Shown: positions 30,841 through 55,795 of the stretch, piece after piece | Position numbering within the stretch: the stretch's first letter is position 1 | How the letters are laid out: every line of letters starts with the position of its first letter | IMG/VR virus record: IMGVR_UViG_3300042549_004140 | Strand: one strand, 5' to 3' | Length of the DNA stretch: 64,000 nt | From: an uncultured virus (IMG/VR IMGVR_UViG_3300042549_004140) | Taxonomy: Duplodnaviria > Heunggongvirae > Uroviricota > Caudoviricetes | Position numbers and translations under genes: made by a program | The notes under the pieces: model-generated | Told to the model about the DNA's origin: nothing | The model's input: only the letters and a program-made list of their open reading frames with translations | Databases searched by the model: none

Positions 30841-30865
30841 AACGCAATACTAGCACAGCGTTTTG

Positions 30866-33730: not shown

Positions 33731-33749
33731 ACTTCTATTGTAACTTATC

Positions 33750-33824: not shown

Positions 33825-34074
33825 AGTTTGCCAGATGAATCCTTACTGGCGTGTCCGGAACCGTTCCGGCAAGGCGCATAGAAGAACCACCAAATAGCGC
33901 CTGATTCGAGATTATTCTAGCACACCTAGTCAGTCAACCTTTGCAGAACATCAAGCTGTGCTTCAATAAGGTCTAGTTTCTCACGGAGCACTTTCAAAGT
34001 AATCTCCACAATCTCAATCTTCTCTCCAAGGATTTCCCTCTGGACGTCGACGTTTTCGTTTTCTGACATAAGCC

Positions 34075-35529: not shown

Positions 35530-35691
35530 TGTTAAGTTCCTTCTTAACGAACTGCCAGAAGTCCTCCATGTCCTCGATATAGATTTCATCGCTGACTTCC
35601 TGGACGTCGCCACTTCGCTTTTCGCGGAAGTAGTGCATTGAGCACATCCCCCGCCCAAAAACCTTTTTCTCGCAACTGTCAATCTTGCACA

Positions 35692-36015
35692 CTACTTCTG
35701 CTCTCCTAGCATCTCTAGTATCTGTCTTTTCAGGTCCGATAGCGCAATGTCTCCACGCATCGGAGGGTTTTTCATCATCTTGTCAATCAGGTCCAGAATC
35801 TCTTCTGTTTCCGATAGTTTCCTTATGGACGTCGACAAATCGGTCTCGAAGACCTCATCATTCGACATGGACTTACCACAGTTGCATACATACTTGGCTC
35901 CACCTTGCGGAGTCTTGTAGAAGGTGTGAATGTGCTCATCCAGAGAATACTCTTCAGTATCCTTAGCTTTCAGCGGATTGTACTTGCTGAACAGTTCAAA
36001 GAAATCTTTACTCAT
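35692..36015 (-). CDS. Hypothetical protein
   Basis: ORF track. Confidence 0.6.
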   Translation of the reverse strand: MSKDFFELFSKYNPLKAKDTEEYSLDEHIHTFYKTPQGGAKYVCNCGKSMSNDEVFETDLSTSIRKLSETEEILDLIDKMMKNPPMRGDIALSDLKRQILEMLGEQK

Positions 36016-36234
36016 ATCTACATCTTACATCCCCCCAAAGAAATATGTCAAATCAGCACGAACGCGCGGATCTAGCTCCGACACAACTTATCACGAAGCT
36101 TCGTTCAAACTTCTACCGGACGTCGAGATTTTATTATATAAAGTATCATATTGTACAGAAAAGGCCCCCCGAAGGGAGCCTCTTTTGTGCGTGTAAACTT
36201 AAACCTAAACTATTTATAATCTTATACGGTTTTA

Positions 36235-36924
36235 CTAGCTGAGCCTGTCATATATGTTTTTTACACTAGTTGGATACCACTTACCACCATTAGATGTAGG
36301 TACGCTATCCTTATTTAAACCCGCGGCTATTTTACCAAAACTAGTACCAGACCTACGCTCCGCTAAAATCCTATCCTTTACCTCTTTAGGCGTTTTATCC
36401 TTGGGGCCAACATCCATCCCCCACACCAACCCGCTATCCCTAAGGCTTTGATGTCTACCTTTAGCTTTTTCACTCATTAACTTGATCTGCTCTTCAGTGA
36501 AGACATGCTTAGGCCTGCTCATAGTCCTATCCCTCTGAGCCGCCCTCTTTTCCGGAGTCCAGTAGGCCCTAATCTTTTCTATAGACTCACTAGTGTGAGA
36601 CCCGCCAACAAAACCATCTCCGCCATCAGTGACATTAAGTAGACTAGAATCTTTTACTCGATAGTCGCTAATATGAGAAGCCTCTAAGACGCAGGCTTCA
36701 TCCCAGGATAGGCCAGACTCTAGTATCACATACCCAATAGAGAATCCATCTGACTCATGTCTGTTTATCCATTTGTAGACCGGAAGATGTTTTACCTTAT
36801 TGCCGTTTCTAGCCGAGCTAAGGTGGGCAGCAAATCTTTTATCAGCATTCTCATATTTACTAATCCCAATGTAACGAATCCTATCAGGCTCTTTAGTTGA
36901 GAATAAACCATATACGCAGCTCAT
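36235..36924 (-). CDS. GIY-YIG-like endonuclease with a recombinase-type C-terminal DNA-binding domain
   Basis: VYGL...RYIGIS...RF..H...E...LLN.T.GGDG, a NUMOD-like HTSESIEKI segment, and a C-terminus homologous to the 55142 ORF. Confidence 0.75.
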   Translation of the reverse strand: MSCVYGLFSTKEPDRIRYIGISKYENADKRFAAHLSSARNGNKVKHLPVYKWINRHESDGFSIGYVILESGLSWDEACVLEASHISDYRVKDSSLLNVTDGGDGFVGGSHTSESIEKIRAYWTPEKRAAQRDRTMSRPKHVFTEEQIKLMSEKAKGRHQSLRDSGLVWGMDVGPKDKTPKEVKDRILAERRSGTSFGKIAAGLNKDSVPTSNGGKWYPTSVKNIYDRLS

Positions 36925-36961
36925 AACTCTAGTATATCTTAACTTTATATGACTGACTTAT

Positions 36962-37231
36962 TTAGCCTAATACAGCGAAGACATCTTCTTCTGCAAGGAC
37001 TAGGTATTCCTTAGATCCAAGGGTCAGGGTAGTGCCAGCGTACTTCGAGTAGATTACGGTGTCGCCTACAGCGATGTCCTCTACCTTACTGCCGATGGCA
37101 ACTACTTCACCCTGCTGCGGCTTCTCCTGCGCTACGTCTGGAATGATTAGTCCAGAGGCAGTTGTCTGCTCTGCATCTTTCTGCAGGATGGCAACTCGGT
37201 TGCCGATTGGCTTAATCTTGATCTGACTCAT
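36962..37231 (-). CDS. groES: Co-chaperonin GroES
   Basis: IKPIGNRV, TTASGLIIPD.AQEKPQQGEVVAIG, VGDTVIYSKYAGT. Confidence 0.95.
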   Translation of the reverse strand: MSQIKIKPIGNRVAILQKDAEQTTASGLIIPDVAQEKPQQGEVVAIGSKVEDIAVGDTVIYSKYAGTTLTLGSKEYLVLAEEDVFAVLG

Positions 37232-37556
37232 TGAGTTCTTCTTTCTTATCTTTTAACTTCTGCTTGTATTCAGCAGCAAGGTTCTGTACGGTTTGGTTCT
37301 TGTAGTGGACTGTCTTTACTCGGTCCAGCTTGAAGCTTCGCATCTGCTCAGCCCCCTTCTTTCCGCCCCACACATCTAACCACTCGGTTGTCGGAGTGAC
37401 AATGTATTGGACAAATCTATAACGCCCACGCTCCCCGCGTATCTTCAGCTCGGTTCCCTTGCTGACGTTCCTCCCGTTGATCTGCATCTCCAGGATGTAC
37501 TTCCAGCTGTCGTTAGGGCGAGGTCCTTCAGGACCCTTGCTCTTTTTCCTACCCAC
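37212..37556 (-). CDS. Hypothetical protein
   Basis: GTELKIRGERGRYRF; operon context. Confidence 0.7.
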   Translation of the reverse strand: MGRKKSKGPEGPRPNDSWKYILEMQINGRNVSKGTELKIRGERGRYRFVQYIVTPTTEWLDVWGGKKGAEQMRSFKLDRVKTVHYKNQTVQNLAAEYKQKLKDKKEELNESDQD

Positions 37557-38110
37557 TATACCTCATTCCCCCAAACGCTCCAACCTTCCATTGGACGTCT
37601 GGCAAACATCTCCAGCTTTGTAGCGTCTGGGTATAGACGCTCAATCCTGCGGTGGACCTCGTCCGGCTTCCGCGAATGCTCCATCTTAGCAGCAAGAATA
37701 GTATGAGGCACACCCTCATCTGAAATAGGCAGCGGTCTGCCTTTAGGAATGTTCGAAGCAACCAGCACGTACTCGGCTGTTGGCTTCACTACGCTTGGGC
37801 GAACACCCTGCGCCCCGATTGGAGTAACTCCATCCGCCCTGGTCTTAATCCAGGTGAACGCTACCCCACGATAAGTTAGCCCCCAATGCCGGAGAAGATC
37901 GATGGCAAAGTCCAAGCGAGGAGAGGTAACCCACATAAAAACCACTCCAGGCTTTTCCAAAATGCCCTTGATGTCCATTGCCATCAGATCTTCGTCCGAC
38001 ATAGTCGGATAGAACTTCGCAGCTGCACCCATCTTATCCTGGGCACCATAATAAGACCAGGGTGGATCCATAAGGATAACCTGGTACTTAGAGTCTGGAA
38101 GTTCGGTCAC
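37556..38110 (-). CDS. MT-A70-family adenine methyltransferase
   Basis: YQVILMDPPW, FMWVT, WG..Y....F.WIK, HSRKP, LEMFAR..GW.VWGNE. Confidence 0.92.
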   Translation of the reverse strand: MTELPDSKYQVILMDPPWSYYGAQDKMGAAAKFYPTMSDEDLMAMDIKGILEKPGVVFMWVTSPRLDFAIDLLRHWGLTYRGVAFTWIKTRADGVTPIGAQGVRPSVVKPTAEYVLVASNIPKGRPLPISDEGVPHTILAAKMEHSRKPDEVHRRIERLYPDATKLEMFARRPMEGWSVWGNEV

Positions 38111-38112
38111 GA

Positions 38113-38484
38113 CTACTTCTGGTGAATCATTAGGTCTAGGCCATTGTCTGGGTGGTATGACCACTCAGCCTCAAAGCCGTCCCAGTCACCAGTCTGCTTA
38201 CCGTCAAGAGCACGAGTAGTCTCGATACTGTTGATGATAAACTCAGGCATCTTGATACGCTGCGACTGAACTACGCAGACGATATCATCGATGTTGGCAC
38301 CAGTGTATTCGTCTTCACCCATCATGTCTAGGGACAGGGTCTTACCTTCGTCACCAATCCGAAAACCGTCAGACAGGTTGCACTCTTCAGAAACCTTCTG
38401 AAGTGTGGTAGGCCCTGCAGCGCATCCGGAAAGTGTTGCTGCCAATAGGCCAGCGATGCCAAAAATGGCAAGTGTCTTTTTCAT
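38113..38484 (-). CDS. Lipoprotein
   Basis: Lipobox LSGC after a hydrophobic signal. Confidence 0.8.
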   Translation of the reverse strand: MKKTLAIFGIAGLLAATLSGCAAGPTTLQKVSEECNLSDGFRIGDEGKTLSLDMMGEDEYTGANIDDIVCVVQSQRIKMPEFIINSIETTRALDGKQTGDWDGFEAEWSYHPDNGLDLMIHQK

Positions 38485-38621
38485 ACGTCTTCTATCATTG
38501 AGGGGACATGCTTATCATAGCACACAAAATAAAAACCTCATCCGAAGATGAGGCTTTATCCCCAGGCATCGAGCCGACCGTCCGGACGGCCATTACCTGT
38601 TCGACCGCCTAACGGTCTGGT

Positions 38622-38964
38622 TAGTGGAGATGGGGGCATCCGAGAGCCCCGTCCGCTAAATATTTAATCGTTCTTCTACAAGCTTAGGCAGTTTATATTT
38701 CCAGGACCGAACTGCCACATCCTGTGGTGCTGGGGTTTAACGTCCACAGCATCGACGTACTACAGGTTGTTCTACTTATTTAGAACCTGACTGCCCAGCT
38801 AGAACTACTGCTTTGTCAGGGGCCTTAGCGGAGTAGCGAGGCTACGCTGCTAGTGCGAATGCGGAACGTGAGTTTGCATTTAGGGGTTTGCCACACTTAA
38901 GAGTGCGTGGCCGTCTCTGCTTGCTTCACCGACTTCAGATTTAACGTCGAAACCTGTCATCCCC
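38622..38964 (-). ncRNA. ssrA: tmRNA; tag peptide ANSRSAFALAA
   Basis: 5' GGGGATGACAGGTTTCGAC pairs with 3' CATCTCC-A including G3-U70; tag ORF 38877-38842. Confidence 0.95.
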
Positions 38965-38985
38965 GTGAACACTATTCAGTTGTAA

Positions 38986-39381
38986 TTAAAGTGTAGCAGA
39001 TTTTTGCGCATCGCGCCAGCTGAGGATGTGTTCTTCTTTACATGTAAAGCAGCGGCAACCATTCTCAAACTTTTCTGCTGTACCACAAGCGAGAAGGGCA
39101 GCTTCGCCATTCTTGCTGTTCTGGAGAGCAGTCTTGTCTTCGTGACACGACTCACACAGAACTTGGCAGTCCTTAAGCTCTTTCTTACGAACCTCTTCGC
39201 TACGAGACCAGATGTCTCGAGGATTGAAGGTCTTGTTGTCTTGGTCCTTGTGATCAACTTCAAGGTTCCGAGTAGAGCCACACTTGACGCACTTACCGCC
39301 CTTGGACTCAATCCACTCGCGTTTGCGTTTAGTTACAAAGGCGAGCTGGTAGTCGCGTTTCTTTTTTCCTGTATAGCCCAT
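38986..39381 (-). CDS. HNH endonuclease
   Basis: CVKCG...LEVDH...CQVLCESCH..KT. Confidence 0.85.
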   Translation of the reverse strand: MGYTGKKKRDYQLAFVTKRKREWIESKGGKCVKCGSTRNLEVDHKDQDNKTFNPRDIWSRSEEVRKKELKDCQVLCESCHEDKTALQNSKNGEAALLACGTAEKFENGCRCFTCKEEHILSWRDAQKSATL

Positions 39382-39390
39382 GCTTCTATT

Positions 39391-40128
39391 TTACAGCAGA
39401 TTACGAATTAGGACTAGCGTCTCTTCCGGGCTAAACACATGCTGAAAGTCTACTCCAGTACCTATAACAGGGAAGTCGTTGCCGCCAGGCTCAAGCCGAT
39501 CTCCAACAAACAGAATACTGTCTGGGGATATGTGAGTACGCTTGCAGAGCTCATAGATTCCATAGCTTTTATCGATACCAAGCCTAGTAATGTCTATGCT
39601 AGTAGACCCACCTGACCGCACATCGAACTCAGGCAGCATTGAAGCTACGGTTCTCCTCAGCTGATCACGCCTAGATTTATCAGGATCCCAGGCTTCTTTC
39701 TCTTCCAACGGGGCATCTTGCCCTAGAGCGGAGAATGTTATCTGAGAGCCGCGATTGTCGATTACCTCGCCATATGGATTGTCCGGCCACACCCCAAGCA
39801 ATGCAGCAGACACGTGCAACACACTAATAATTCTCTCAGCCTGAGCTGGAGTAAAGTCTTCCGAGTATACAGTACGCCAACGACCAAAGTGGCGCTTGAG
39901 GTAACGAGCACCGCTTGTCGGCATTAGGTGTAGGTTTCGGAGGTTAGCACCGGCAGGAAGCTTACTAACTACCTGAGACATAATCTGCTGCTCGGTACCG
40001 CCGCTAATGATGCACACCTGCGTGATATCTAGAAGACTCTTAAGAGCCTTAGCCATCTCGCACGAAATAGGACCCTTGCTAGGTGCAAGGGTCCCATCGA
40101 GATCGAAAGCAATGAGCTTAAGACCCAT
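39391..40128 (-). CDS. HAD-IIB hydrolase, phosphomannomutase-like
   Basis: FDLDGTLA, ISGG, RGSQITFSALGQ, GGSTSID, FVGD...GGND. Confidence 0.88.
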   Translation of the reverse strand: MGLKLIAFDLDGTLAPSKGPISCEMAKALKSLLDITQVCIISGGTEQQIMSQVVSKLPAGANLRNLHLMPTSGARYLKRHFGRWRTVYSEDFTPAQAERIISVLHVSAALLGVWPDNPYGEVIDNRGSQITFSALGQDAPLEEKEAWDPDKSRRDQLRRTVASMLPEFDVRSGGSTSIDITRLGIDKSYGIYELCKRTHISPDSILFVGDRLEPGGNDFPVIGTGVDFQHVFSPEETLVLIRNLL

Positions 40129-40370
40129 TAGTCGCGAGTAACCAGTCGGCGCTTGATTGCGTCAAAAATCTTTGGACGCTTCTTAGCAGCCTTACCGTTC
40201 GTGCGTGAGTCGTTACGAGCTGGACCGGACTTCTGTCCGCCTCCGCCTTTACCTTTTGCCATTTGGGCTCCTGTCTTCAGAACTACATTCTAACACAAAG
40301 ATTAGCAAAAATTAGTTTGCAATTTATCATTACACCTATTATTATGTAAGTACCAGATAAAAGGAGCAAC

Positions 40371-40847
40371 ATGAACGAAGAGATCTTCGAATACTACGCG
40401 ATACAGATGGAGCCACTGCTTCCGCTAGCTAGAAAAGCCTACGGCTCTAGAACAACCAAGTCGCCGCAGCATGACGCTTCCCGCGAGTACACTCGACTCC
40501 TAGTCGAGTTCTACCGCAAGGGCGGGAGCCTAATACAGATGGCAAAGCGTCTGGACGTAACCTACCCTGGCATCCGCAGAAGAATTTTGACCGATGAAAT
40601 TCCAGCAGAGCCAAAAGGTAAGAACAGCAAGTCCTCACCGCATGAAGTGGTAGAAGCCGCAGTACGAGTTAAGTTGGCTCACCTAGAGGATGGGTCAGCC
40701 GCATACCACGACCAGATCCGCCATGAGTACGAGGTCAACAAGATATCCCTAGCGAAGCTTGCTAAGGAGCTCGGGCTTAGCTCAGCCAACCCACTCTACT
40801 ATGCAGTGACTCGATCAAGACTCAATAGTCGACAAGACGCCCTGTAA
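40371..40847 (+). CDS. Putative double-HTH DNA-binding protein
   Basis: SLIQMAKRLDVTYPGIRRR and SLAKLAKELGLS; AAGGAG RBS. Confidence 0.65.
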   Translation: MNEEIFEYYAIQMEPLLPLARKAYGSRTTKSPQHDASREYTRLLVEFYRKGGSLIQMAKRLDVTYPGIRRRILTDEIPAEPKGKNSKSSPHEVVEAAVRVKLAHLEDGSAAYHDQIRHEYEVNKISLAKLAKELGLSSANPLYYAVTRSRLNSRQDAL

Positions 40848-40888
40848 AAGAATACCCCCTCGAAAGAGGGGGTATCTTTTTACTCAGT

Positions 40889-41155
40889 TTAGAGTTCTGA
40901 TGCAGCCTTGTTCTTAGCAACCTCTGCTTCAGCAGACGATGCAAAAGCAACGTTGATTTCGTCTTCGTCAAGAACACCGTCTACAACGTAGGCACGTGCT
41001 AGAGACTCAGCAACTTCCATGACACCAACAAATGCGGCGACAAGGGCTGACTGCCAGAGTTCGACTCCGGCGATTGAACCAGCGGCTAGAACACCGCTAA
41101 CTTTTAGGATCACAAGAGCAATAGTTCTCTTGAAAATCTTCTTTGCAATTTCCAT
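40889..41155 (-). CDS. Small membrane protein (holin-like?)
   Basis: Two hydrophobic segments. Confidence 0.5.
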   Translation of the reverse strand: MEIAKKIFKRTIALVILKVSGVLAAGSIAGVELWQSALVAAFVGVMEVAESLARAYVVDGVLDEDEINVAFASSAEAEVAKNKAASEL

Positions 41156-41220
41156 TTGGATCTCCCAGGGGTAGGTTAATGAATAACCCTCTCCCAGGTC
41201 TAATCCAATTATACATCAGA

Positions 41221-41547
41221 TTATGTATGACGACGAGACGGTATGATTGGCGTGATACGAAGACCGCGACGAATCTTTGAGCGATCAATCTCAGTGGTTC
41301 CGCCCCAGATTCCTTCAAGTTCAGGACGCTTCATAGCGTAGGCACGACACGCGTGCATGTACTCACAGCCACCGCATATCTTCTTAGCTTCACGCTCGTA
41401 GGTGTATCGCCCGCGAGCCTTCTTCATCGAGCCCTCCGGAGCATCTTCCGAGAAAAATGCTTCAGGGTTAGACTCTGTGCAAGGAGGCGGACCATACAGC
41501 TCGAAGTCTGGGTAGTCTTCTTCTGGCTGGAATACAAAAATTGTCAT
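41221..41547 (-). CDS. whiB: WhiB-family regulator
   Basis: C...PEAFF...AKKICGGC....C......GIWGGTTE.DR. Confidence 0.9.
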   Translation of the reverse strand: MTIFVFQPEEDYPDFELYGPPPCTESNPEAFFSEDAPEGSMKKARGRYTYEREAKKICGGCEYMHACRAYAMKRPELEGIWGGTTEIDRSKIRRGLRITPIIPSRRHT

Positions 41548-41567
41548 GCGTCTCTGTCTCTTTCGTT

Positions 41568-41759
41568 CTACACGAAGGGCTTGTTAGTGCTGAATCCGCC
41601 ACCCTTAAAACTAATTGGTGGTGCAGTAAACACTCTCTGAAGTTTACCAGAGCAACCCTCGCTAACGCAAGTCAGCTGCTTCTGGTCCTCGGACATGCTG
41701 CGTTCTTCGCTGTATTTGTGCTCGCTATTTTCAGAGCATTTGTATTCATAGGTAGGCAT
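41568..41759 (-). CDS. FmdB-family Zn-ribbon protein
   Basis: MPTYEYKC...C...C...RVF.APPI.FKGGGF. Confidence 0.85.
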   Translation of the reverse strand: MPTYEYKCSENSEHKYSEERSMSEDQKQLTCVSEGCSGKLQRVFTAPPISFKGGGFSTNKPFV

Positions 41760-41858
41760 ATCACAATCATACCGCATAAAGGAAAACCCCTCCCGAGGGA
41801 GAGGTTCTCATTTACTTATTAGAGCAGCAAGAGCAGCTACCGCACTCACAACCAAACA

Positions 41859-44947
<3,089 letters not shown>

Positions 44948-45333
44948 TCCATCTTCCTTTTAACTTCGAGTACATCGTCAGGAGTTCCAAATATTTCTAT
45001 TCGATGCAGCAATGGAACTCCCGTTTTTGCTGAAACGATTTCTGCGGCTTTACAGTAATGCTCGCCAAAGTTTGTGTTACCCAACCCCACAACACCTTTG
45101 ATGTGGGATCTATTTTGTGGAACATTGAGAAACTTAACTACTTGCCTAGGAACAGAGTGGGGTTCACTCCCACCACCGTATGTCGGTACAAATAGTATGT
45201 AATCAATGTCCACTAAAGTTGGTGCCTCATCGTCCCATCTAATAGGAATTCTAGTCGATGGTAGGTCCAGTTTTTCAATAAACCGATGAGTGTTGCCAGA
45301 ATAGTTGGAGAAATATACAATCTCCATGATTAA

Positions 45334-45555
45334 CTATTCGGCCAGTGATGAAATCTTGTCTGGACGAAATCCACTCCAGTGGGTGTCACCTGAAATAACA
45401 ACAGGAGCAGCCGCATACCCTAGCTCACGAACCATGTCCATAGCCTCAGAGTCTTGACTTAGGTCAACTACTTCAAATGGCGTTCCGTTCTTTGTAAGCA
45501 TACGCTTGGTGCTATCGCATTGGACACAGGCTGGGAGAGTATAAACGGTTACCAT
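45334..45555 (-). CDS. nrdH: Glutaredoxin-like NrdH
   Basis: CVQC, APVV, HWSGFRPDKI. Confidence 0.95.
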   Translation of the reverse strand: MVTVYTLPACVQCDSTKRMLTKNGTPFEVVDLSQDSEAMDMVRELGYAAAPVVISGDTHWSGFRPDKISSLAE

Positions 45556-45622
45556 TAGAGATCTTTCTAGATGAGGGAGGGTGGGGTATTCCAGTATAAG
45601 TCAAAAATCAAAAATCGATTTT

Positions 45623-45853
45623 CTACTTGAATGATGATACCGCATCTACTATGTCTTTGCAAATCGGGCAGACTTTTAGCTTCTGAGGGTCGCGGTGAGG
45701 TATAAAAACTTTACCACACAAGGCAACTACAGGGGTTCCCATTACGTAGCCCTCGGTGACCTTTGCCGCCTCCGCATAATGAGCCATAGGATCATCATCT
45801 TTTTCATCAACATCTAGGTCAACATCTGGCTTCTCAAGCACGTCTACGGACAC
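45623..45853 (-). CDS. DUF3039-like protein
   Basis: HY......E..V.GTPVVALCGKVF.P.RDP....VCP.CK. Confidence 0.85.
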   Translation of the reverse strand: MSVDVLEKPDVDLDVDEKDDDPMAHYAEAAKVTEGYVMGTPVVALCGKVFIPHRDPQKLKVCPICKDIVDAVSSFK

Positions 45854-46797
45854 TAAATTTCCTTCAAACTTTCTAAAACTGCTTCCAGTTTAATTTTACC
45901 AAGATACGAGGCCACATCTTTATACCCATAGGATACCACAACATCATCACCGCATACCACCAAACCAGCCGCAAACTCAATGTCGGCATCAGAAAGCTTA
46001 AACTTATCAGAGAGGTGAGTCAGTGTTCCGTTGTCGCTGTACCGAGCGAATCTGTGAAAATAACTTCTTTTAGTTTTAGTCACCAGCCCAAACTTTCTAG
46101 GAGAATAGTTGGTCTCTTCCCAGGTCACAACCTCATGCACGATTGCCAAGTTATAGTCGCCCATGCTCCACAAAGCACTACCCCCACGAATCTTATTCAA
46201 TAAAGACTCGTCCTTGTCTCTTCTATATATCTTACCTACCTCAGACTTATACACGGATGCGCCACTATATACATAGTCGCAGTCGTCTGGTTTTTTATAG
46301 AACGGCATCCAGTTCTTCTCGATCGGCTGCAGATCACCCTCAGTGTGGAGTTTCAATAGCACAGCTTTAGTGCCGTCTAGCTTGTATTTAGCAATCCTAG
46401 GGATGTCGTCACTAATATACGGCTCACGCATTACAGAAAGAATATGCCAAGCGCCGTCTTGCCAATACAAGCGACCATCCTCCGGCCCACGCAAAAACCG
46501 ACCGCATTCGGAAAAATCAATCTCTTCTAGGGTGGAGCTGTCTATTTGCCAATTTTTGTCGAGGCTGGCCATAAACATCCTATTTTTAACCCTATTTCCA
46601 ATAGTGGCAACCGCATCCCCAGTCTGAGGGTCGAAAAAATAGTTACTGGACCTAAATAAAATCACATACCCATGTTCCGGCGAATAGGCCACGGACGGGT
46701 TAAAAGCAGACCAACGTTTGTCATTTTCGTCTACAAACCTAAGAACGCGCCAAGTTTCGCCTCCAAGGTCGGAAAATGAGGTGTTTTTGCTTGACAT
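45853..46797 (-). CDS. Beta-propeller glycosidase-like protein
   Basis: FNPSV, EDGRL, EKNWMP, RGGS, HE, IEFAAG, SYG..D; paralog of the 53243 ORF. Confidence 0.7.
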   Translation of the reverse strand: MSSKNTSFSDLGGETWRVLRFVDENDKRWSAFNPSVAYSPEHGYVILFRSSNYFFDPQTGDAVATIGNRVKNRMFMASLDKNWQIDSSTLEEIDFSECGRFLRGPEDGRLYWQDGAWHILSVMREPYISDDIPRIAKYKLDGTKAVLLKLHTEGDLQPIEKNWMPFYKKPDDCDYVYSGASVYKSEVGKIYRRDKDESLLNKIRGGSALWSMGDYNLAIVHEVVTWEETNYSPRKFGLVTKTKRSYFHRFARYSDNGTLTHLSDKFKLSDADIEFAAGLVVCGDDVVVSYGYKDVASYLGKIKLEAVLESLKEI

Positions 46798-46882
46798 AGA
46801 TACTTTTATTGTACCCGATAAAACTTACCATGCAATAATTAAGGTAAAATAAGAGAAGCGTTATCTCCCACTAAGGACGTCA

Positions 46883-47242
46883 ATGAGCTGCTCAATTTCT
46901 GGTGTTTACAACATATCCTGTGATCAAGGTGCCACTTTCTCGCGAGTCATCACTTGGACCGACTCAGCACGCTCGCCATACAACATTACCGGCTATACCG
47001 CTAGAATGCACGTTAGATCCAATGTTACCGCTAATACCACCGCTATCACGCTCACAACAGAAAACAGCCGAATCACACTAGGCGGCGCAGCTGGAACCGT
47101 GACCCTAACTATTGCCGCAACAGACACAGCGAACTTAACTGCAGGTCTTTATGTATACGACCTAGAACTCGTCTCTTCGGCTAACGTTGTAACCCGTCTT
47201 ATTGAAGGTAACTTTAACGTTAAGGCCGAGGTGACGCGCTAG
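46883..47242 (+). CDS. Tail-fibre-associated Ig/BppU-like protein
   Basis: DQGATF...GYTARM.VR...YVYDLEL...RLIEG.F.V..EVTR, directly upstream of the fibre gene. Confidence 0.65.
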
Positions 47243-50200
47243 TGGCTGTAGAGTTTGAAGACACAAATAGAAAAGTAATAATCAACCAGCGTGACCAGAA
47301 CAAGGTCATAGTTCAAGATGTCATAAACAAGGTTGAAGTTGGCATAGGCGGCCCGCAAGGACAAGAAGGTGCTCAGGGGACTCAAGGAGTTCAAGGCACT
47401 AAGGGCAATCAAGGAGCCACAGGTACTCAAGGCGCAGTTGGAACACAGGGCATACTCGGTACAACTGGAGCACAAGGTGTAATAGGCTCTACCGGTGCTC
47501 AAGGCACAACAGGTATTCAAGGCTCACAAGGTGTGACCGGCTCCACAGGTGTACAGGGTGCAGCAGGGCAAACTGGATCGCAAGGCACCGTTGGAGCTCA
47601 GGGTGTGACCGGAACGCAGGGCACAACTGGCTCACAAGGTATTACAGGTGTTCAGGGTCAAATAGGTTCACAGGGCAACACTGGCGATACCGGTGCACAG
47701 GGTGTAACAGGTTCTACAGGTGTACAGGGTGTAACAGGTTCTACAGGTTTGCAAGGTGTTACGGGCGCACAGGGGACGACTGGCACAACAGGTTCTCAGG
47801 GAACTACAGGTTTTGTAGGCTCGCAAGGTATAACAGGCTCACAAGGCACAACGGGCGCAACAGGCTCACAGGGTGTGACCGGAACCACTGGCTCTACTGG
47901 TGTACAAGGTGTCACAGGCTCACAAGGAATTACAGGAGATGTAGGCGCTCAAGGAACCACAGGTTCAACTGGTGTTCAGGGTGCGGTTGGCACAACTGGA
48001 GCTCAGGGAGTAGTCGGCTCCCAGGGCACAACAGGAATCCAGGGTTTTAATGGTGCACAAGGCACAACAGGTATCCAAGGCAACACGGGCATCCAAGGAA
48101 CGCAAGGCACAACAGGTACACAAGGCACAACAGGTCCAACTGGCGATACAGGTCTGCCTGGTGAAACAGGCCCACAAGGTGCAACTGGACAAGGATTTGA
48201 TTTTCGAGGTCCATACACTCCAGGAGCAACTTACAACGAGTACTTTGTAGTAACTTACAATGGTTCTACCTACATCTGCCGCGATAATGGTGTTGTTAAT
48301 GTTGTACCAGGCTCTAGCCCGGCTTGGGATTTATTTACAGAAAAGGGTTCAACTGGTGCTCAAGGTACAACAGGCGCACAAGGAACACTAGGGGAGACCG
48401 GAGCGCAGGGGATTACAGGAGCTACCGGCAATACTGGTTCTCAGGGTACAACTGGCACCACGGGTTCCACTGGTATCCAAGGCACCACGGGTACGCAAGG
48501 CCTTACGGGAGACGTCGGTTCTCAGGGTGTGACAGGTTCAACTGGCGTCCAAGGAGCACTGGGCACCACTGGTGCGCAAGGTGCAGTAGGTTCAACTGGT
48601 ATTCAAGGTATAACAGGGACCACTGGTGCTCAAGGCACAATCGGTACAACTGGAGCTCAAGGAACTACAGGAGCACAAGGCACGACGGGGACCACCGGCG
48701 ACACGGGTATTCAGGGTGCAGTAGGTACAACGGGCTCAACGGGCGCACAAGGAACCACCGGTACGCAAGGAACAGTCGGAGCCACGGGAGCTCAAGGAAC
48801 AATAGGCTCTACTGGAATCCAGGGTATTACTGGAGGGACTGGCTCACAAGGTGTTCAGGGTATTCAGGGTCTTTCGATTCAAGGTCTTCAGGGTGTAGAC
48901 GGAACTCCAGGTGCCGGTGGATCTCAGGGATACTACGGCTCTTTCTTTGACACTACAGACCAACGAATAGTCACACCGTCCGTGGCTCAAGCAGTTACAA
49001 TAAACTCAGTTTATCCAAACGGTTACAGTGGAATTTCAGTTCTTGATGGTAGCGAAATAACTATTGCTAATCCAGGAACCTACACAATGACGGTTATTGC
49101 AAGGGTATCTAATGACGCAAACTCCGTTCAAGAAGCAACGTTCTGGCTAAAACTAAACAACAACGACTACCCGAACTCTGCAACTACAGTCACCTTGCAG
49201 CCTCGCAAATCTTCAAGTGAGCCATCTTTCCAGTTAATGACTCTTACTTTTACTGGAACTTCAACTAGTGCCAATGACTACGTTCAAATTTATTGGCATG
49301 GCACAAATACAAGTTTGTCCTTAGAGCATAGTGCTGCAGGGACATCACCGACTCACCCAGTAACTCCTTCAGTAATCGTTAGTATCACTCAGGTTATGTA
49401 CACCCAGCTCGGCCCTCAGGGTACGACCGGTACTCAAGGTTTGACAGGCGTTCAGGGCACCACAGGTGTGACCGGAACTCAAGGAACAACTGGAACTACA
49501 GGCTCACAAGGAACCATTGGAAGTCAGGGCACAATTGGTGCTACTGGTGCTCAGGGTACGACTGGCTCCACAGGTATCCAAGGTGCTGTAGGTTCAACGG
49601 GTTCTCAAGGAACTATTGGAAGCCAAGGAACTTCAGGTACAAATGGCGCGCAAGGAACAATCGGTGCAACGGGAAGCCAAGGCACAACCGGCTCTACTGG
49701 AGAGACAGGCACGCAGGGTACAACTGGAACGCAAGGTGTCACGGGTACACAAGGAACCACCGGCACAACGGGAGCACAGGGAACTACTGGAACTCAAGGA
49801 ACTACTGGTGTTCAAGGTCTGACTGGCTCATTCGGCGGTGCAACATTTGAGTACGAGTTTGACAATGGAACTACAGACCCAGCAACTCTTGACACAGGAA
49901 CATTCAGACTAAACAACGCCGACCCAACTCTGGCAAACGTTATGTACATCTCGTTCAATGACGACCTTGGCGTAAACATATACAACTTCCTACAAACAAT
50001 CGACGACTCTACATCTCAAATCAAGGGTACGTTTAAAGCTACAAAAAAGACTGACACTAACGAGTTTGCTTTCTTTAACATCACAGGAAGCCACGTTCAC
50101 GACGACGACCATTTCAATGTTCCAATTTCTTTTGTTAGCGGAAATACATTTACTCCAGCTGACACAGAGGTATTCTACCTAACATTCCAGCGAACCGGTG

Positions 50201-52674
50201 ACATTGGTGACACTGGTGCGCAAGGAACAACTGGTACGCAGGGTGTTCAGGGTGTGCTAGGTTCTACAGGTATTCAGGGAACCACGGGTGCAACCGGGCC
50301 ACAGGGCACGACCGGACCGCAGGGTATTCAAGGCGGTGTCGGAACTCAAGGCACTACAGGTTCTACCGGTGTGCAAGGTCTGACCGGTTCGACCGGAAGT
50401 CAGGGAACAACGGGTACGACAGGCATACAGGGAACAACCGGCTCCACTGGCATCCAGGGAACTACGGGAGCAACCGGAAGTCAAGGTACAACTGGTACGA
50501 CCGGTGCTACAGGGTCTACTGGTATTCAGGGAGCAATTGGTTCACAAGGCACAACTGGAACAACGGGTGCCACAGGCATTCAGGGTATATCGGGAACTAA
50601 TGGTTCTCAAGGAACTACGGGAGCAACAGGTTCTACAGGTGCTACAGGTTCTCAAGGTCTTACCGGCTCTACAGGCATTCAAGGAACGACGGGGGCTACT
50701 GGTGTTCAAGGAACAACAGGCGCGACCGGGTCTCAGGGTATTACAGGCTCAACAGGAGCGACAGGTTCAACTGGTGTTCAGGGTGCCACCGGTACCACAG
50801 GCTTACAGGGTGTAACTGGCGCAACGGGAGCCACTGGTTCGCAGGGCACGACTGGAACAACTGGTAACACTGGTGCAACCGGTGCTCAAGGAGTTCAAGG
50901 TTTACTAGGTATTCAAGGCACAACTGGTGCGACCGGCGCGCAAGGAACCCTGGGAACAACTGGAGCACAGGGCACGACTGGTGCTACAGGCTCACAAGGT
51001 ATCACTGGTTCCACTGGTGCGACAGGTTCTACTGGTATTCAAGGAACAACAGGCGCAACTGGCTCACAAGGAACTACAGGCGCGACTGGAACAACAGGCG
51101 CAACTGGCTCACAAGGAACTACCGGAACTACCGGTTCTCAAGGTGTTCAGGGCACACTAGGTGCGCAAGGCACGACCGGCACTACTGGACTTCAGGGGCT
51201 AACTGGAGCTACAGGTAGTACAGGAGCCACTGGTTCGCAGGGCACGACTGGAACGCAGGGTACAACAGGTATTCAGGGAACAACAGGTTCAACTGGAGCG
51301 ACAGGTATTCAAGGAACAACTGGTACAACCGGTGCTACCGGTTCTCAAGGAACTACGGGAACAACGGGTGCTACTGGTGCTCAGGGGACTGTAGGCACAA
51401 CCGGTGCTCAGGGTACGACTGGCGCAACAGGCGCTCAGGGTATTATAGGCTCTACTGGTGCTACGGGTTCTACAGGTGCCCAGGGAACTACGGGAGCAAC
51501 TGGTTCAACAGGTGCGCAAGGTATTACTGGTACGACCGGTGCGACAGGTTCTCAGGGTACAACTGGAACTACAGGTAATACAGGAGCGACGGGCTCACAA
51601 GGTATTACTGGTTCGACCGGTATTCAGGGCTCAACAGGTGCTACTGGTATTCAAGGTTCAGTAGGTGCGCAAGGAACGACTGGCTCTACAGGTATTCAAG
51701 GTGCCACAGGCATACAGGGAACCACGGGAACCACTGGTGCCCAAGGAACCACGGGAGCAACCGGCGCGCAGGGCACCACAGGGGCCACCGGAACTCAAGG
51801 TATTACAGGTTCTACAGGTATTCAGGGAACCACGGGTGCGACGGGGTCTCAGGGTGTTACGGGCTCTACAGGTACTCAGGGTATTACGGGTACGGGAATT
51901 CAGGGTACTACTGGTGCACAAGGGACAACTGGAGCAACGTATTCACTTCCGACAGCAACCTCCACAACACTAGGAGGAATTGAGCTATTTTCCGATACAA
52001 CACAGTCTGTTGCAGCCAGTGCAGTCACTTCCACTGCATCAAGAACATACGGAATACAGTTAAACGCAACAGGTCAAGCAGTTGTCAACGTCCCATGGGT
52101 AGATACTGACACTAACACCTTTCCAACCACTTGGGCGTGGACTTCCGGAGCGGGGTCTGGTCCTACTGCTAATATTACTGGCACATCAGCCACTATCTCA
52201 GTAGCAGCAATTCCTTCGGCATCAAATACAGCGTCTGGAATCGTGACTACAGCTGCACAAACGTTTGCCGGAACTAAAACTTTTACCAGCAACATTTATG
52301 CAAATGACTCAGGTTGGATAACTACATCTTCTGCAGGTGTTCCTCTTACCGCATCAACTGGCTGGTCGCTCACTAGCTTCAGTGTCCGTCGCTTAAACGG
52401 CATGGTTAATGGAATCATTACAGTTAGCCGTACTGGTGCAAACATTACAGTACCTGCCACAGGTAACATTACTAACTCACAGATTGCATTTTTCTCAAGC
52501 GGTTGGTATGGCTCAACCGCCGCAAGCGGAATGGTTCTCACAAACGGTTCTGGTCCACTAATTGGTGGCTTTGTAGATGTTAGCGGAAATATTACTATTA
52601 GTGCGGCATCCTCTGGTGCAACAATCTCAACTGGAGATACTTTTAGCTTTACCATCTGGGAGATGCTGGATTAG
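47242..52674 (+). CDS. Collagen-like (Gly-X-Y) fibre protein, 1810 aa
   Basis: Long G-X-(T/Q) triplet blocks separated by globular inserts; C-terminal beta-rich tip. Confidence 0.9.
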
Positions 52675-52683
52675 GTAAACTAA

Positions 52684-53256
52684 CTAGACGTCTAGTCTAT
52701 CTAAATTATCTTTAGAGGCTTTTCTATAAATCTCCGGGCAATCCTTGTCGGCAGCAAGTTTTCTAAGTGCAGCCAAGCTTTCTGACTTACGGCCAATCCA
52801 CCACGCGGCAACCGCTTTTTGGAATGTTGCCGAATACCAGTCGTAATAGCCGACACTCACAGGCAATTCAAACACCTGTCTGTTGTGCGTTAGCGAAAGG
52901 CTAGCAAACGTGTAGCTCTCCTGCCATTGACCAGCAAGTTCATAAAAAACAGATAATGCCCAGTAAGCTTCCGGACGAGTAGGTAGATACTCCACGGCCT
53001 GAAGTAGGCTATTGCTAACGGTAAGCCCACGACCCGTCTGCCTATCAATACAAGATGCGACTTTGACAAGAGCCGCATACGTCAAGTCCATGTGAGTCTT
53101 GTATCCGTACTCAGCCGCACGCAGATAGAAACTGACAGCAGATGCAGTTTGACCGAGCTTTTCATACTCCACTGCCAAAGCAAGATTTTTTTCAGGATTG
53201 TAGGAGTCTTTAGATAGCTCTACCGTTAGAAATTCGATTCTTTTATTTGGATTCAT
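52684..53256 (-). CDS. TPR-like helical repeat protein
   Basis: LAVEYEKLGQTASAVSFYLRAAE, PTRPEAYWALS..YE, AVAAWWIG. Confidence 0.7.
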   Translation of the reverse strand: MNPNKRIEFLTVELSKDSYNPEKNLALAVEYEKLGQTASAVSFYLRAAEYGYKTHMDLTYAALVKVASCIDRQTGRGLTVSNSLLQAVEYLPTRPEAYWALSVFYELAGQWQESYTFASLSLTHNRQVFELPVSVGYYDWYSATFQKAVAAWWIGRKSESLAALRKLAADKDCPEIYRKASKDNLDRLDV

Positions 53257-54262
53257 ACTCTAAGGCCTCGCTAACTAAGTCATCAACCACACTAGATGGC
53301 ATTCTTAGGACAAAAGCGGCATTGTCTTGAAATCCAAAACTAACAAGCAAGTCGCCTTTATAGATTGCAGCGCCAGCAACAAACTCAATATCTCCCCCAA
53401 GAAAGACAAGCGGCATCTGAGACATGCCAATCAGCTTAAAGTCTTGATCCCAGACAACCAACCTATGCCTGTAGATGCCATCCTTTTGGTTTAGGTAGTT
53501 TCTTTCTAGGTCCACTTCATGCGTGAAAGCAATGTAGTAATCCCCCCACCTAACCACATGAGAACCGCCACGCTGGTCTTTTTCTGGAGCAAAAGATTCA
53601 ACTAGAGCAACCTGGGCACAACCGGCCGGCTCTTCTGGCCAAGTACGCACAACTTCAGTCGGTGACGTCCACTTTACAAAGTGGAAAGGCTTATCAAGAA
53701 TCGGCATCCAGTTTTTCTCGCAGTACGAGTTGTCTTCTCCAGGGGCAGGAATGCGTAGACGGGACACTTCTTTAACTGTCCAAGCATCTTCGTCGATCTC
53801 AATCTCGCTCAGTTCCATGCGACCCTGGCCATTAGTAGTTGTATCGCGCCGAACTCCGATTGCGTACCATCTGCCTTCCCACTTAACTAGGCGGCAGTCT
53901 TCTTCCCCAGCAAACTCCCAGAGAGGCGGAACGTCAAGTTTAGAAGTGTCAATGAGACCGAAGTCGGCCATTGAGAGATTCTCATCTAACTTACAGATGT
54001 AGTTAGTAGTACGTAGGTTCTGATCCGCTTCCGGATGCAGGTAAGCAAGTGGACCCCATCGACTAGGGAATCGCTGGTCATTTTCAGAATGATAGAGAGT
54101 GTAGTTAACGTGACGCAGGTTTACGTAGATTTCATCCTCGTCGGTAACAAAGACCGAAGGATTCATAAGTCCAGTCCCAGCGGTCAACCCCTGAGAAATA
54201 ACAAGAGGACTAAGTTGCCCGCCACTGGCTACAGATTTTTGCACAAGATTGTTGTTCGTCAT
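53243..54262 (-). CDS. Beta-propeller glycosidase-like protein
   Basis: MNPSV, EDCRL, EKNWMP, RGGS, HE, IEFVAG, SFGFQD. Confidence 0.75.
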   Translation of the reverse strand: MTNNNLVQKSVASGGQLSPLVISQGLTAGTGLMNPSVFVTDEDEIYVNLRHVNYTLYHSENDQRFPSRWGPLAYLHPEADQNLRTTNYICKLDENLSMADFGLIDTSKLDVPPLWEFAGEEDCRLVKWEGRWYAIGVRRDTTTNGQGRMELSEIEIDEDAWTVKEVSRLRIPAPGEDNSYCEKNWMPILDKPFHFVKWTSPTEVVRTWPEEPAGCAQVALVESFAPEKDQRGGSHVVRWGDYYIAFTHEVDLERNYLNQKDGIYRHRLVVWDQDFKLIGMSQMPLVFLGGDIEFVAGAAIYKGDLLVSFGFQDNAAFVLRMPSSVVDDLVSEALEYESK

Positions 54263-54325
54263 TAGACCAATTCTAGCACTTTTGCTAGGCCTTAGTGTAG
54301 ACTTATTCAAAGTGATAGGAACATA

Positions 54326-54589
54326 ATGACAACTAATAATCAAAAACTTTACCGCGTTGACTGGAAGCAATCGACCGACATAATCCCAGGGCAGTTCTTT
54401 GACGAGTACTCGTACGTCGCAGCTAAGTCAGAAACAGAGGCAATCAAAGACCTCTATGGAACTGATTTCAAAGTCAGGGAAGCGACGATTGAAGAGATGG
54501 AAGCCTACGTTCGAGGATATGAGGACGGCTATGACTCAGGCATCCTAACTGAGAGAATCAGAATTGCAGAAACCTCCGAAGAGGTCTAA
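54326..54589 (+). CDS. Hypothetical protein
   Basis: AGGA RBS. Confidence 0.65.
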   Translation: MTTNNQKLYRVDWKQSTDIIPGQFFDEYSYVAAKSETEAIKDLYGTDFKVREATIEEMEAYVRGYEDGYDSGILTERIRIAETSEEV

Positions 54590-54591
54590 AG

Positions 54592-55134
54592 GTGATTATT
54601 GGACTAAGCGGATACGCGCGCTCAGGCAAAGACACTATTGCTGATTATCTAGTCGAGCATCACGGATTTATCAAACTATCATTTGCTGCTCCGATGCGCG
54701 AAGCACTCTACAAACTAAACCCAGAGATTACGGATATGACTGGATTAGTTTATGGTTTTAGACAGGCCGTAAATCTATTTGGCTGGGACGATATGAAGAC
54801 ATACTTCCCCACCTACCGAGGGCTCATGCAACGTATGGGCACGGAGGTTGGCCGAGAGATGTTTGGCGAAAACTTTTGGGTGGAGCAGGCATTGAAGCAG
54901 GTAACCGAAGGGTCTAACTTCGTATTGTCTGACGTTAGATATCAAAACGAGGCCAACTCGGTTCAAGCAGTCGGCGGAGAGGTTTGGAGAGTAGAGCGCC
55001 CAGGGGTAAAAGCTGCCAACGACCACACCTCTGAGCACGACCTAGACGACTACAAGTTTGATCACCGCATTATGAACTATGGGCCCGTAGAGGATCTCTA
55101 TCAAACAGTAACAACTATTCTTACTGACCTATAA
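54592..55134 (+). CDS. Deoxynucleoside monophosphate kinase
   Basis: IIGLSGYARSGKDT, FAAP, RGLMQRMGTEVGR, SDVRY.NE, H.SE. Confidence 0.92.
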   Translation: MIIGLSGYARSGKDTIADYLVEHHGFIKLSFAAPMREALYKLNPEITDMTGLVYGFRQAVNLFGWDDMKTYFPTYRGLMQRMGTEVGREMFGENFWVEQALKQVTEGSNFVLSDVRYQNEANSVQAVGGEVWRVERPGVKAANDHTSEHDLDDYKFDHRIMNYGPVEDLYQTVTTILTDL

Positions 55135-55141
55135 TTAATAC

Positions 55142-55795
55142 GTGGACATAGAACCTACAGACTTAGCAATACTTTACGCACGCGTATCTACCCAACTACA
55201 GGTAAACGACGGCGTATCCCTTGACGTCCAAGAACGTCAACTGCAGCAGGCAGCCGAGATGGCTGGCTACACAAACATTGAACTTGTCCGAGAAGAAGGC
55301 CGCTCTGGAAAAAATATTAGCGGACGTCCAGCACTTACAGACGCACTAAAAAGATTAGATGCCGGAGAAGCTAAAGCACTATTTGTTACCCGCATTGATC
55401 GTCTAGCTCGCTCAACACAAGACTTCCTTAGCGTTGTAGACCGAGCCAACAAGAACGGTTGGCGTCTTGTGATGCTAGATCTAAACCTAGACACTTCTAG
55501 TTACCAAGGTCGCTTCGTAGTCACAATCATGTCAGCCCTAGCTGAGATGGAACGTGGGATCATTGCCGAGCGTCAGAAGGACGTACACAAAGACCGACGT
55601 GCACGCGGGGTAGTCTGGGGGGTTGACATGGGACCAAAGAATAAGACCCCAGAAGAGATCAAACAGCGCGTTACTGCTGAACGATCTTCCGGGGCCTCAT
55701 ACCGCAAGATTGCAGACGGACTAAACCGAGATCAAGTGCCTACTCAGAATGGTCGTCAGTGGTATCCGACAACTGTTCGGAATCTTTTACTTTAG
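55142..55795 (+). CDS. Serine recombinase (resolvase catalytic domain plus short recombinase-type DNA-binding domain)
   Basis: YARVST, SGKN..GRPAL, VTRIDRLARS, ALAEMER..I.ER. Confidence 0.93.
   Translation: MDIEPTDLAILYARVSTQLQVNDGVSLDVQERQLQQAAEMAGYTNIELVREEGRSGKNISGRPALTDALKRLDAGEAKALFVTRIDRLARSTQDFLSVVDRANKNGWRLVMLDLNLDTSSYQGRFVVTIMSALAEMERGIIAERQKDVHKDRRARGVVWGVDMGPKNKTPEEIKQRVTAERSSGASYRKIADGLNRDQVPTQNGRQWYPTTVRNLLL

Follow-up and report, generated by a model that had tools for sequence, protein, structure and literature searches.

A putative GIY-YIG homing endonuclease of a lake-water phage that shares the DNA-binding domain of the resident serine recombinase and interrupts a candidate recombinase site

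Introduction

Resolvases and invertases bind their crossover sites as dimers, and these sites are typically built of two 12-bp arms around a 4-bp centre; res lies just upstream of the resolvase gene, beside its promoter. The retargeting of homing endonucleases is an old question, usually framed as drift in sequence-tolerant binding modules. Among chimeric nucleases, Odn of Vibrio phage ICP1 carries, according to the available part of its description, a DNA-binding domain like that of a satellite replication initiator, and binds and cleaves the satellite origin (Barth et al. 2021, PMC8263062). The shuffling of DNA-binding domains between homing endonuclease genes (HEGs) and non-HEGs in ICP1-like phages and satellites is presented, in the accessible text of a further article, as a route to new specificities (Barth et al. 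2023, PMC10448857). For homing endonucleases, the accessible portion of a 2006 survey of GIY-YIG proteins lists NUMOD patterns and few other domains, none of them a recombinase domain (Dunin-Horkawicz, PMC1564403), and no recombinase domain is mentioned in the available part of a 2012 review on homing endonucleases and host proteins (PMC3384342). The present work deals with a stretch of 64,000 nucleotides from an uncultured virus of the Caudoviricetes (IMG/VR IMGVR_UViG_3300042549_004140), called the window throughout, in which two open reading frames (ORFs), one for a GIY-YIG nuclease (ORF A) and one for a small serine recombinase (ORF B), end in the same DNA-binding module.

The reading preferred here is that ORF A encodes a GIY-YIG homing endonuclease that captured the DNA-binding domain of the recombinase of its own phage lineage and was thereby retargeted to the recombinase's own 28-bp site. 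A probability of about 0.55 is assigned to it from the sequence comparisons that follow.

Results

The module shared by the nuclease and the recombinase

Residues 142-225 of ORF A (36235-36924) align by BLASTP with residues 133-216 of ORF B (55142-55795) at 43 identical positions out of 84, without gaps and with an E value of 5e-31. By hand count the leading 23 aligned residues contribute just five identities, and the core that starts at GLVWG/GVVWG holds 38 in 61 positions. The earlier note on this DNA had reported a shared C-terminal domain with 38 of 60 identities, a count that is confirmed over 61 positions in the same two ORFs, but its term near-identical was overstated, the core being 62% identical in protein and 58% in DNA (107/183). 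Protein identity of 51-62% over the module, together with the DNA figure and with agreement at a mere 18 of the 61 third codon positions, indicates that the relationship is old and not the outcome of a recent conversion. Searched by tblastn against the whole window, either module found the two copies only, the next matches having E values of at least 0.59.

The alignment of ORF B with gamma-delta resolvase runs through helix E and stops at ARGVVWGV / AKGVVFGR, which is the domain boundary. The shared module therefore starts where the catalytic part gives way to the DNA-binding part, and it consists of the whole DNA-binding domain of the recombinase, that is, the minor-groove arm and the helix-turn-helix (HTH). 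The earlier proposal that the common part binds DNA is supported by this correspondence. In both C-termini the match to the 102-position Pfam profile Recombinase (PF07508) is confined to its first half, and a search of the module by sequence against the PDB gave nothing at E<=10. By VIA-align, the modelled module of the nuclease can be superposed on the DNA-binding parts of SPbeta integrase, Bxb1, gamma-delta/Tn3 resolvase and Sin with Z scores of 5.1-6.5; it has to be set against the preferred reading that such values (5-6.5) are no better than those for generic HTH domains.

ORF B carries an intact catalytic set, its residues R14, S16, D86, R87 and R90 aligning with R8, S10, D67, R68 and R71 of gamma-delta resolvase. 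The 62 residues that follow helix E match PF07508, and a match to PF02796 (HTH_7) was not reported. With 217 amino acids and the first half only of PF07508, ORF B is not a large serine recombinase, proteins of more than 400 amino acids with zinc-ribbon and coiled-coil regions; as judged from its sequence, it is a small serine recombinase of the resolvase/invertase type. Relatives of it were found in at least 596 stretches of viral contigs and are conserved across the phage lineage.

For ORF A, an AlphaFold2 model was built on 20 relatives (mean pLDDT 74). VIA-align superposed it on the catalytic domain of I-TevI (1mk0) with a Z score of 11.0 and a root mean square deviation of 2.3 Å over 92 of 97 residues, and on 1ln0 with a Z score of 10.1. 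Foldseek matched the model to the I-TevI fold with a probability of 1.00 and a TM score of 0.73 on the target; with the whole model it returned nothing at E<=0.001, the top matches still being GIY-YIG domains. Residues Y5, Y18, R30, H34, E81 and N97, which presumably take the catalytic roles of their counterparts in I-TevI, are invariant in 20 full-length relatives of 55-74% identity. In the protein database, 21 full-length and three shorter relatives were found (53-100% identity). No Pfam NUMOD family was reported in ORF A at E<=1, and two of its stretches resemble NUMOD3 by eye. From fold and sequence, ORF A is predicted to be an I-TevI-type GIY-YIG nuclease with an unorthodox DNA-binding end. 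The assignment of one gene to the GIY-YIG nucleases and of the other to the serine recombinases, made in the earlier note, is thus borne out by the fold match, the invariant residues and the PF00239 match of ORF B.

Nuclease cassettes inside a single-copy dyad

The nuclease gene lies in a cassette that is lacking in G002, a relative whose recombinase is 95% and whose Cpn10 is 98% identical to those of the window. Positions 35532-36208 and 36958-38625 of the window are collinear by blastn with 1377-2053 and 2070-3738 of G002, where the place of the cassette is taken by a spacer of 16 bp that separates the Cpn10 stop codon from a terminator-like hairpin. G002 keeps recombinase and Cpn10 and shows no match to the N-terminal domain of the nuclease. 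Contigs of independent lake-water runs extend across both cassette junctions with no difference, and the insertion is therefore not an assembly artefact. Contigs joining across the cassette were found in none of four lake-water runs, although contigs cannot show absence of the empty allele. A second nuclease subfamily is also inserted, as L089 4492-5985 replaces 223 bp of L090/L093. By these comparisons, the ORF A gene is identified as a free-standing mobile homing-endonuclease cassette.

The empty sites in G002 and L090 are alike. Each is a 28-bp dyad with imperfect 12-bp inverted arms and a 4-bp centre, of consensus TGTATAAACTTA-N4-TAAGTTTATACA, and the intact copy of G002 lies at G002:2035-2062. 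Both nuclease cassettes split this dyad, as seen in the window against G002 and in L089 against L090/L093; in L089 one arm and the centre stand before the cassette and a degenerate arm after it. The three best half-site matches of the 64-kb window all lie at the cassette ends (36190, 36213 and 36940), with scores that singly are at noise level, similar values being reached in shuffled windows.

The dyad is present once in G002, G003, G004 and G005 and is absent from the window and G001; shuffled genomes gave 0-1 copies. With a weight matrix made from 31 distinct dyads, the dyads of the genomes scored 26-36 bits, the next best sites at most 6.4 bits and the best site of the window 6.3 bits, which is noise level. 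For G002, G004 and G005 some circularity enters the scores, as the matrix was trained on a set that includes their sites. No second, weaker dyad rose above shuffle level in G002, G004, G005 or the window, and further copies of dyad sub-motifs occur in the window in chance-level counts.

The dyad is also linked to the recombinase gene. In the fetched flanks of 64 distinct recombinase loci, equally long on both sides, it was found at 21 loci, 21 times upstream and never downstream. Four dyads lie at -82 to -87 bp from the recombinase start, some of these loci being near-duplicates, and in the Actinomycetia phage DSL-LC01 a dyad of the same form stands 91 bp upstream of the recombinase ATG (L192 3011-3038). 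A census centred on the dyad placed a recombinase within 4 kb at 18 of 25 loci (by our own grouping, 12 of the 18 distinct arrangements), with the 5' end of the gene facing the dyad in 18/18 linked loci.

A promoter-like element accompanies the dyad at a distance of 18-45 bp in most loci, and in L090 a hairpin likewise adjoins the dyad. The unit formed by dyad and promoter seems to change its neighbours from one genome to another. The hairpin element, which had been put forward as a possible target of the two proteins, looks like a terminator beside the cassette. Inverted repeats in the neighbourhood of the recombinase (50-60 kb) are weak, chance-like pairs only, and no clear accessory sites or enhancer were found for the candidate site, which occurs once per genome.

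Several observations weigh against the dyad as the site of the recombinase. One in ten shuffled windows reached 20.2 bits with the matrix, apart from the circularity mentioned above, and near-duplicate contigs and related phages are among the loci counted for linkage. The recombinase of the window has no dyad nearby, its start being abutted by a deoxynucleoside monophosphate (dNMP) kinase gene so closely that a dyad would not fit in between, and a distance of ~14-100 kb separates the single dyad from the recombinase in G002-G005. Where the cassette splits the dyad, a phage with the nuclease would be left with a recombinase that has no intact site, yet ORF B is intact. At L168, L169, L175 and L183 a dNMP kinase gene ends 20-45 bp before the dyad, and no recombinase is present within 4 kb of the dyad. 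One viral contig of 126 kb (L168 and L184) has two dyads, which differ in their 4-bp centres and are separated by 31.5 kb. On that contig one dyad is 459 bp from a recombinase and the other 20 bp past the dNMP kinase gene. Finally, there is a likeness between the dyad arm and the -35-like TGTACAA of the promoter-like element, so that the dyad could be an operator owned by another regulator.

The same observations would suit an unlikely but serious alternative, in which the capture is real and the specificities have since diverged, the dyad being the target of the nuclease and/or an operator of another protein and not a recombination site. The modules are old and share 62% of their residues, the dyad always travels with the promoter-like element whose -35-like box its arm recalls, recombinases of the window and of G002-G005 have no dyad near them, and a single dyad per genome leaves the recombinase without an intramolecular partner. 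Divergence is harder to reconcile with the 12+4+12 geometry, which is that of resolvase/invertase crossover sites, and with the linkage of the dyad to the 5' end of the recombinase gene in 18/25 loci, at -82 to -91 bp in four lineages and DSL-LC01. The modules themselves argue in the same direction: as read from the listed module sequences, the third HTH helix has V-K/R-N-I/L in the nucleases and in the lineage recombinases, and INY, VKY, VKA or IGQ in the outgroup modules.

Origin and distribution of the module

An exhaustive search with the 88-residue module against 1.84 billion representatives gave 338 matches at E<=1e-3, of which the best 150 were scanned with Pfam and tallied by hand. Among these 150, Resolvase was found in 70, HNH in three (P0093, P0114 and P0137) and a DpdA fragment in one (P0166), and GIY-YIG in P0030 and P0037 as well as in three members of the ORF A family. 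Many copies are stand-alone or tandem and match also the Pfam family Recombinase-like HTH (PF20552); arrays of 3-6 copies, with or without Resolvase, and short stand-alone proteins were noted (P0031, P0033, P0035, P0038, P0047, P0060). As judged from the sequences, the module is portable, and its fusion to a nuclease has occurred on more than one occasion. P0029 was considered as a recombinase fragment and rejected, its module being identical to that of the L088-type nuclease.

Maximum-likelihood trees of 152 and 71 rows, unrooted and of 70 columns each, united all modules of the lineage recombinases and all 26-27 nuclease modules in one clade (SH-aLRT 98 and 97). The nuclease modules of this clade are those of the ORF A family and of the P0030/L088 subfamily; all the other sampled Resolvase-linked modules (40+) and P0037 fall outside. 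In both nuclease subfamilies the module is joined at the same point, directly after a NUMOD3-like helix. The economical reading of these sequences is one capture, from the lineage recombinase into a GIY-YIG homing endonuclease, given that nearly all members of the lineage have the recombinase, whereas the nucleases occur sporadically. It has to be set against this reading that a single origin of the nuclease group receives a support of just 81-85, in trees that are unrooted and 70 columns long. P0037, a GIY-YIG protein with the module but outside the clade, indicates that captures recur. The domain capture proposed in the earlier note is the best explanation of the shared module and is well supported by these trees.

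The portability of the module raises the further alternative of a promiscuous stand-alone HTH drawn by both genes from a common pool, with no direct exchange or functional link between them. The occurrence of the module alone, in tandem and with Resolvase (70/150), GIY-YIG, HNH or a DpdA fragment, the existence of PF20552 as a family of its own and the recurrence documented by P0037 are what such a pool would produce. The grouping of the nuclease modules with the lineage recombinases, apart from other sampled copies (SH-aLRT 97-98), and the position of the cassettes in a dyad linked to the recombinase are not, and a common pool is considered improbable.

The earlier note had named a common, known architecture of this kind as a ground for refutation. 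Fusions of this sort recur, in GIY-YIG (P0030, P0037) and in HNH proteins (P0093, P0114, P0137), but they are rare, and a printed description was not found. Full-text literature searches, which excluded subscription journals and supplements, returned no homing endonuclease with a serine-recombinase DNA-binding domain and none homing into a recombination site.

Arrangements that may resemble stages before and after the capture exist in related phages. In L103 (on the same contig as L131) and L104, the gene for a nuclease of 241 amino acids and the start of a serine recombinase gene overlap; over 160-169 residues the GIY-YIG domain of this nuclease is 35% identical to ORF A, the L103 protein has four NUMOD3 repeats (E 5.9e-24), and dyads were not found in these two loci. 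In L088/L089, a nuclease of 197 amino acids that carries the recombinase module and is 40% identical to ORF A over its full length is encoded 0.57 kb upstream of the recombinase. Altogether, a GIY-YIG gene of such kinds stands alongside the recombinase in 5 of 103 loci with a recombinase catalytic match (4 contigs). Adjacency of the two genes would offer a simple route to a chimera, the event itself being inferred.

Two side observations concern L089. An ORF of 159 amino acids without Pfam match (L089 5522-6001, present also in L088) separates, as an exact insertion by comparison with L090/L093, the ribosome-binding site from the recombinase start; this is a second insertion, distinct from the nuclease cassette. 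At L089 ~4590-4665 a tRNA-like sequence with a T-arm motif, read by eye, lies upstream of the terminator and dyad arm.

Sporadic occurrence and catalytic state of the nuclease

The ORF A nuclease was found in 2 viral contigs, to be compared with the at least 596 stretches with the recombinase. Viral and metagenome scans with the alignment of the ORF A family, aimed at the contexts of its orthologues of 55-74% identity (P0002-P0021), yielded only window-type loci and distant GIY-YIG genes. A cut-and-resolve pair, as the earlier note had suggested, does not fit such a sporadic nuclease, missing from close relatives that keep the recombinase. Its fuller form, a cooperation in phage replication or packaging with cutting by the nuclease and resolution or repair by the recombinase at one shared site, could appeal to the DNA-binding domain common to both proteins and to the two intact genes of the window, and it is made very improbable by that distribution and by the nuclease being an insertion that destroys the dyad and does not use it. 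Scarcely any weight is given, likewise, to a catalytically dead nuclease-like protein now acting as a DNA-binding regulator, for example as competitor or repressor at the dyad: the Pfam match of ORF A to PF01541 is sub-threshold (16.4 against the curated 22.6 bits), but 20 relatives show no variation at the GIY-YIG tyrosines, arginine, histidine, glutamate and asparagine, the match to the I-TevI fold is strong, and presence and absence follow the pattern of an active homing element.

The repeated motif and the setting of the locus

One of the repeated motifs of the window had been envisaged as the target of the shared domain. The motif GGACGTCGAC (GTCGACGTCC on the gene strand) has 32 matches with at most one mismatch in the window, against 6.2 expected, spanning 20780-36127 and 60225 (for example 29244, 31911, 32921, 33476, 34042, 34946, 35827 and 36118). 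All ten exact copies are on one strand. The motif occurs both in intergenic stretches and within ORFs, where its reading frame varies, and -10 boxes like TAAGAT/TAAATA often follow it. It is a separate DNA-level signal, probably a phage-specific promoter or regulator box, and is probably connected with transcription of the gene block at 29-36 kb that is read leftward. As a target of nuclease or recombinase it was rejected, being a many-copy oriented motif whose sole tie is one copy 90 bp from the cassette; the expectation of a repeated motif as target fails accordingly.

The window derives from a large uncultured lake-water phage, and 24 of the 24 listed sequencing runs that contain the stretch are lake or freshwater metagenomes. 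Its nearest available record is G001 (59.5 kb, estimated 36% complete) and its only named relative is DSL-LC01. A megablast of the region against 50,697 phage records gave zero matches, and tblastn against phage records matched only the DSL-LC01 recombinase. Two more indels separate the window from G002, with ~200 bp extra in G002 (L149) at 663-864 relative to window 35095/35096, and ~377 bp extra in G002 at 3738-4116 relative to window ~38622-38625. Neighbouring genes of the window include those for an MT-A70 DNA methyltransferase (37556-38164, minus strand) and for a Prim-Pol/D5-type primase-helicase (56656-59280, minus strand); in DSL-LC01 the recombinase is likewise near a primase/helicase gene. 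At 59888-59953 (minus strand) a weak tblastn match (E 0.15) to nuclease residues 16-37 may be due to chance or to a second, degenerate GIY-YIG gene. The features of the window are collected in Table 1.

Table 1. Features of the window, with positions, strand (a point where none is assigned) and basis of the assignment
Feature	Position	Strand	Basis
Dyad remnant: one 12-bp arm, 4-bp centre and 3 nucleotides of the other arm	36190..36208	.	Alignment with the G002 dyad; best half-site in the window, 16.4 bits
Nuclease cassette, 749 bp	36209..36957	.	Replaced by 16 bp in G002; blastn collinearity and base-level junctions
Degenerate dyad-arm-like sequence, 3' end of cassette	36213..36224	+	Second-best half-site, 13.4 bits; alone not significant
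Predicted free-standing GIY-YIG homing endonuclease gene (ORF A), 229 amino acids	36235..36924	-	PHROG 314/7168 'homing endonuclease'; I-TevI fold match
Putatively captured serine-recombinase DNA-binding domain (arm and three-helix HTH), residues 159-229	36238..36450	-	PF07508 positions 8-48/102; pLDDT 85-95
Linker with two NUMOD3-like helices, ~residues 107-158	36451..36606	-	Modelled helices 112-121, 124-135, 144-163; NUMOD3 likeness by eye
GIY-YIG catalytic domain, ~residues 1-100	36625..36924	-	PF01541 E 0.011; fold match to I-TevI, UvrC and T4 EndoII over model residues 1-99/103
Degenerate dyad-arm-like sequence, nuclease 5' untranslated region (UTR)	36929..36940	-	Third-best half-site, 12.5 bits; same motif also in the UTR before the L089 nuclease
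Promoter-like element, TGTACAA-N2-TGATAC followed by TATAAT-like box	36128..36157	-	No other exact copy in the window; found beside the dyad in most relatives
Terminator-like G+C hairpin with flanking A and T runs	36159..36186	.	Between dyad remnant and promoter-like element; read from sequence
Cpn10/GroES-like gene	36962..37231	-	Pfam Cpn10 E 1.5e-25; directly upstream of the cassette, flank marker
dNMP kinase gene	54592..55134	+	Pfam DNMK E 2e-21; abuts the recombinase, 8-bp gap to its start
Small serine recombinase (ORF B), 217 amino acids	55142..55795	+	Pfam Resolvase PF00239 E 2e-34, profile positions 1-144/145
DNA-binding domain of the recombinase (arm and HTH), residues 156-217	55607..55792	+	PF07508 positions 6-49/102

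Discussion

The earlier note had offered, among its explanations, a homing endonuclease retargeted to the recombination site. That both nuclease cassettes split a unique dyad linked to the recombinase gene favours this part of it, by support that is indirect. On this basis we infer that the recombinase binds the dyad and that the nuclease binds and cuts it. The events may be pictured as follows. The ancestor would have been a GIY-YIG nuclease with NUMOD3 elements, of the kind that still abuts recombinase genes in related phages, and its C-terminal DNA-binding end would have been replaced by the complete arm and HTH of the lineage recombinase. The recombinase probably binds the 28-bp dyad as a dimer through these same elements, and the dyad may double as operator for the promoter beside it. 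The nuclease, through the borrowed domain, would recognise one arm of the dyad and, by means of its flexible linker, cut nearby, and during co-infection its gene would be copied into the break from a nuclease-plus genome. The filled allele, having no intact dyad, would be immune. Targeting of the dyad arm would explain why both types of cassette split the dyad. At one site per genome the recombinase might serve in multimer resolution or circularisation.

A bolder form of the proposal, for which somewhat less than even odds are given, is that the nuclease shares the 12-bp half-site of the recombinase, homes into the single crossover or operator site and splits it, as a parasite that disables the recombination system; the dyad, moved by the activity of recombinase or nuclease, would then mark rearrangement hot spots in abundant freshwater actinophages. 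If this were true, the independent HNH and GIY-YIG fusions (P0037, P0093, P0114 and P0137) would represent a general route by which nucleases gain recombination sites as targets.

Retargeting of the nuclease looks in this case like a wholesale solution, in which the DNA-binding domain of a resident recombinase was taken and its unique, conserved site was inherited in one step. Since donor, recipient, a relative from before the capture (GIY-YIG with NUMOD3), an empty site and two filled sites have all been identified, the proposal is unusually testable. New is also a candidate 28-bp site for a widespread, uncharacterised family of phage serine recombinases of ~217 amino acids, present in at least 596 viral contigs. 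Together with its site, this family might be put to use as a compact recombinase/site pair, and from the nuclease it can be seen that arm and HTH form a module that is portable between catalytic domains.

Participation of known systems in the comparison can be summarised from the closest kinds of protein. Like I-TevI and the Seg-type homing endonucleases of T4-like phages, ORF A has an N-terminal GIY-YIG fold, a flexible linker and a C-terminal minor-groove element with HTH, and it belongs to a free-standing cassette between genes that is present or absent among close relatives. It differs from them in that its DNA-binding end is the arm and HTH of a serine recombinase, not NUMOD/IENR or a zinc finger, and in that its apparent target is a palindromic intergenic site of 28 bp and not a conserved coding sequence. 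ORF B shares with gamma-delta/Tn3 resolvase, Sin and Hin/Gin the size of ~200 amino acids, the Resolvase domain, the Ser/Arg/Asp set, helix E, the arm and the HTH, and the candidate site, made of inverted 12-bp arms, is situated in many relatives just upstream of the gene next to a promoter, as res is. Unlike in those resolvases, its HTH is the first half of the Recombinase domain of large serine recombinases and not HTH_7, and there is one candidate site per genome, in a phage of ~130-165 kb.

In the terms of the 2006 survey, as far as its accessible text goes, ORF A would be an 'unorthodox' member of the GIY-YIG nucleases (PMC1564403). The examples of domain shuffling in ICP1-like phages and satellites are, in the available part of that article, T5orf172 nucleases with CapR zinc-finger and RepA_N domains, and a serine-recombinase domain or site is not mentioned there (PMC10448857). 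Odn, as it is described in the accessible portion of its report, provides the precedent for the same domain with the same target, being a phage nuclease that shares the domain of another site-specific DNA-binding protein (PMC8263062). The donor of Odn is a hostile satellite, its role is defence and its binding and cleavage have been shown (PMC8263062), whereas the donor of ORF A would be the phage's own recombinase, its catalytic domain is of the GIY-YIG type, and its role, predicted from the sequence, is apparently selfish homing into the site.

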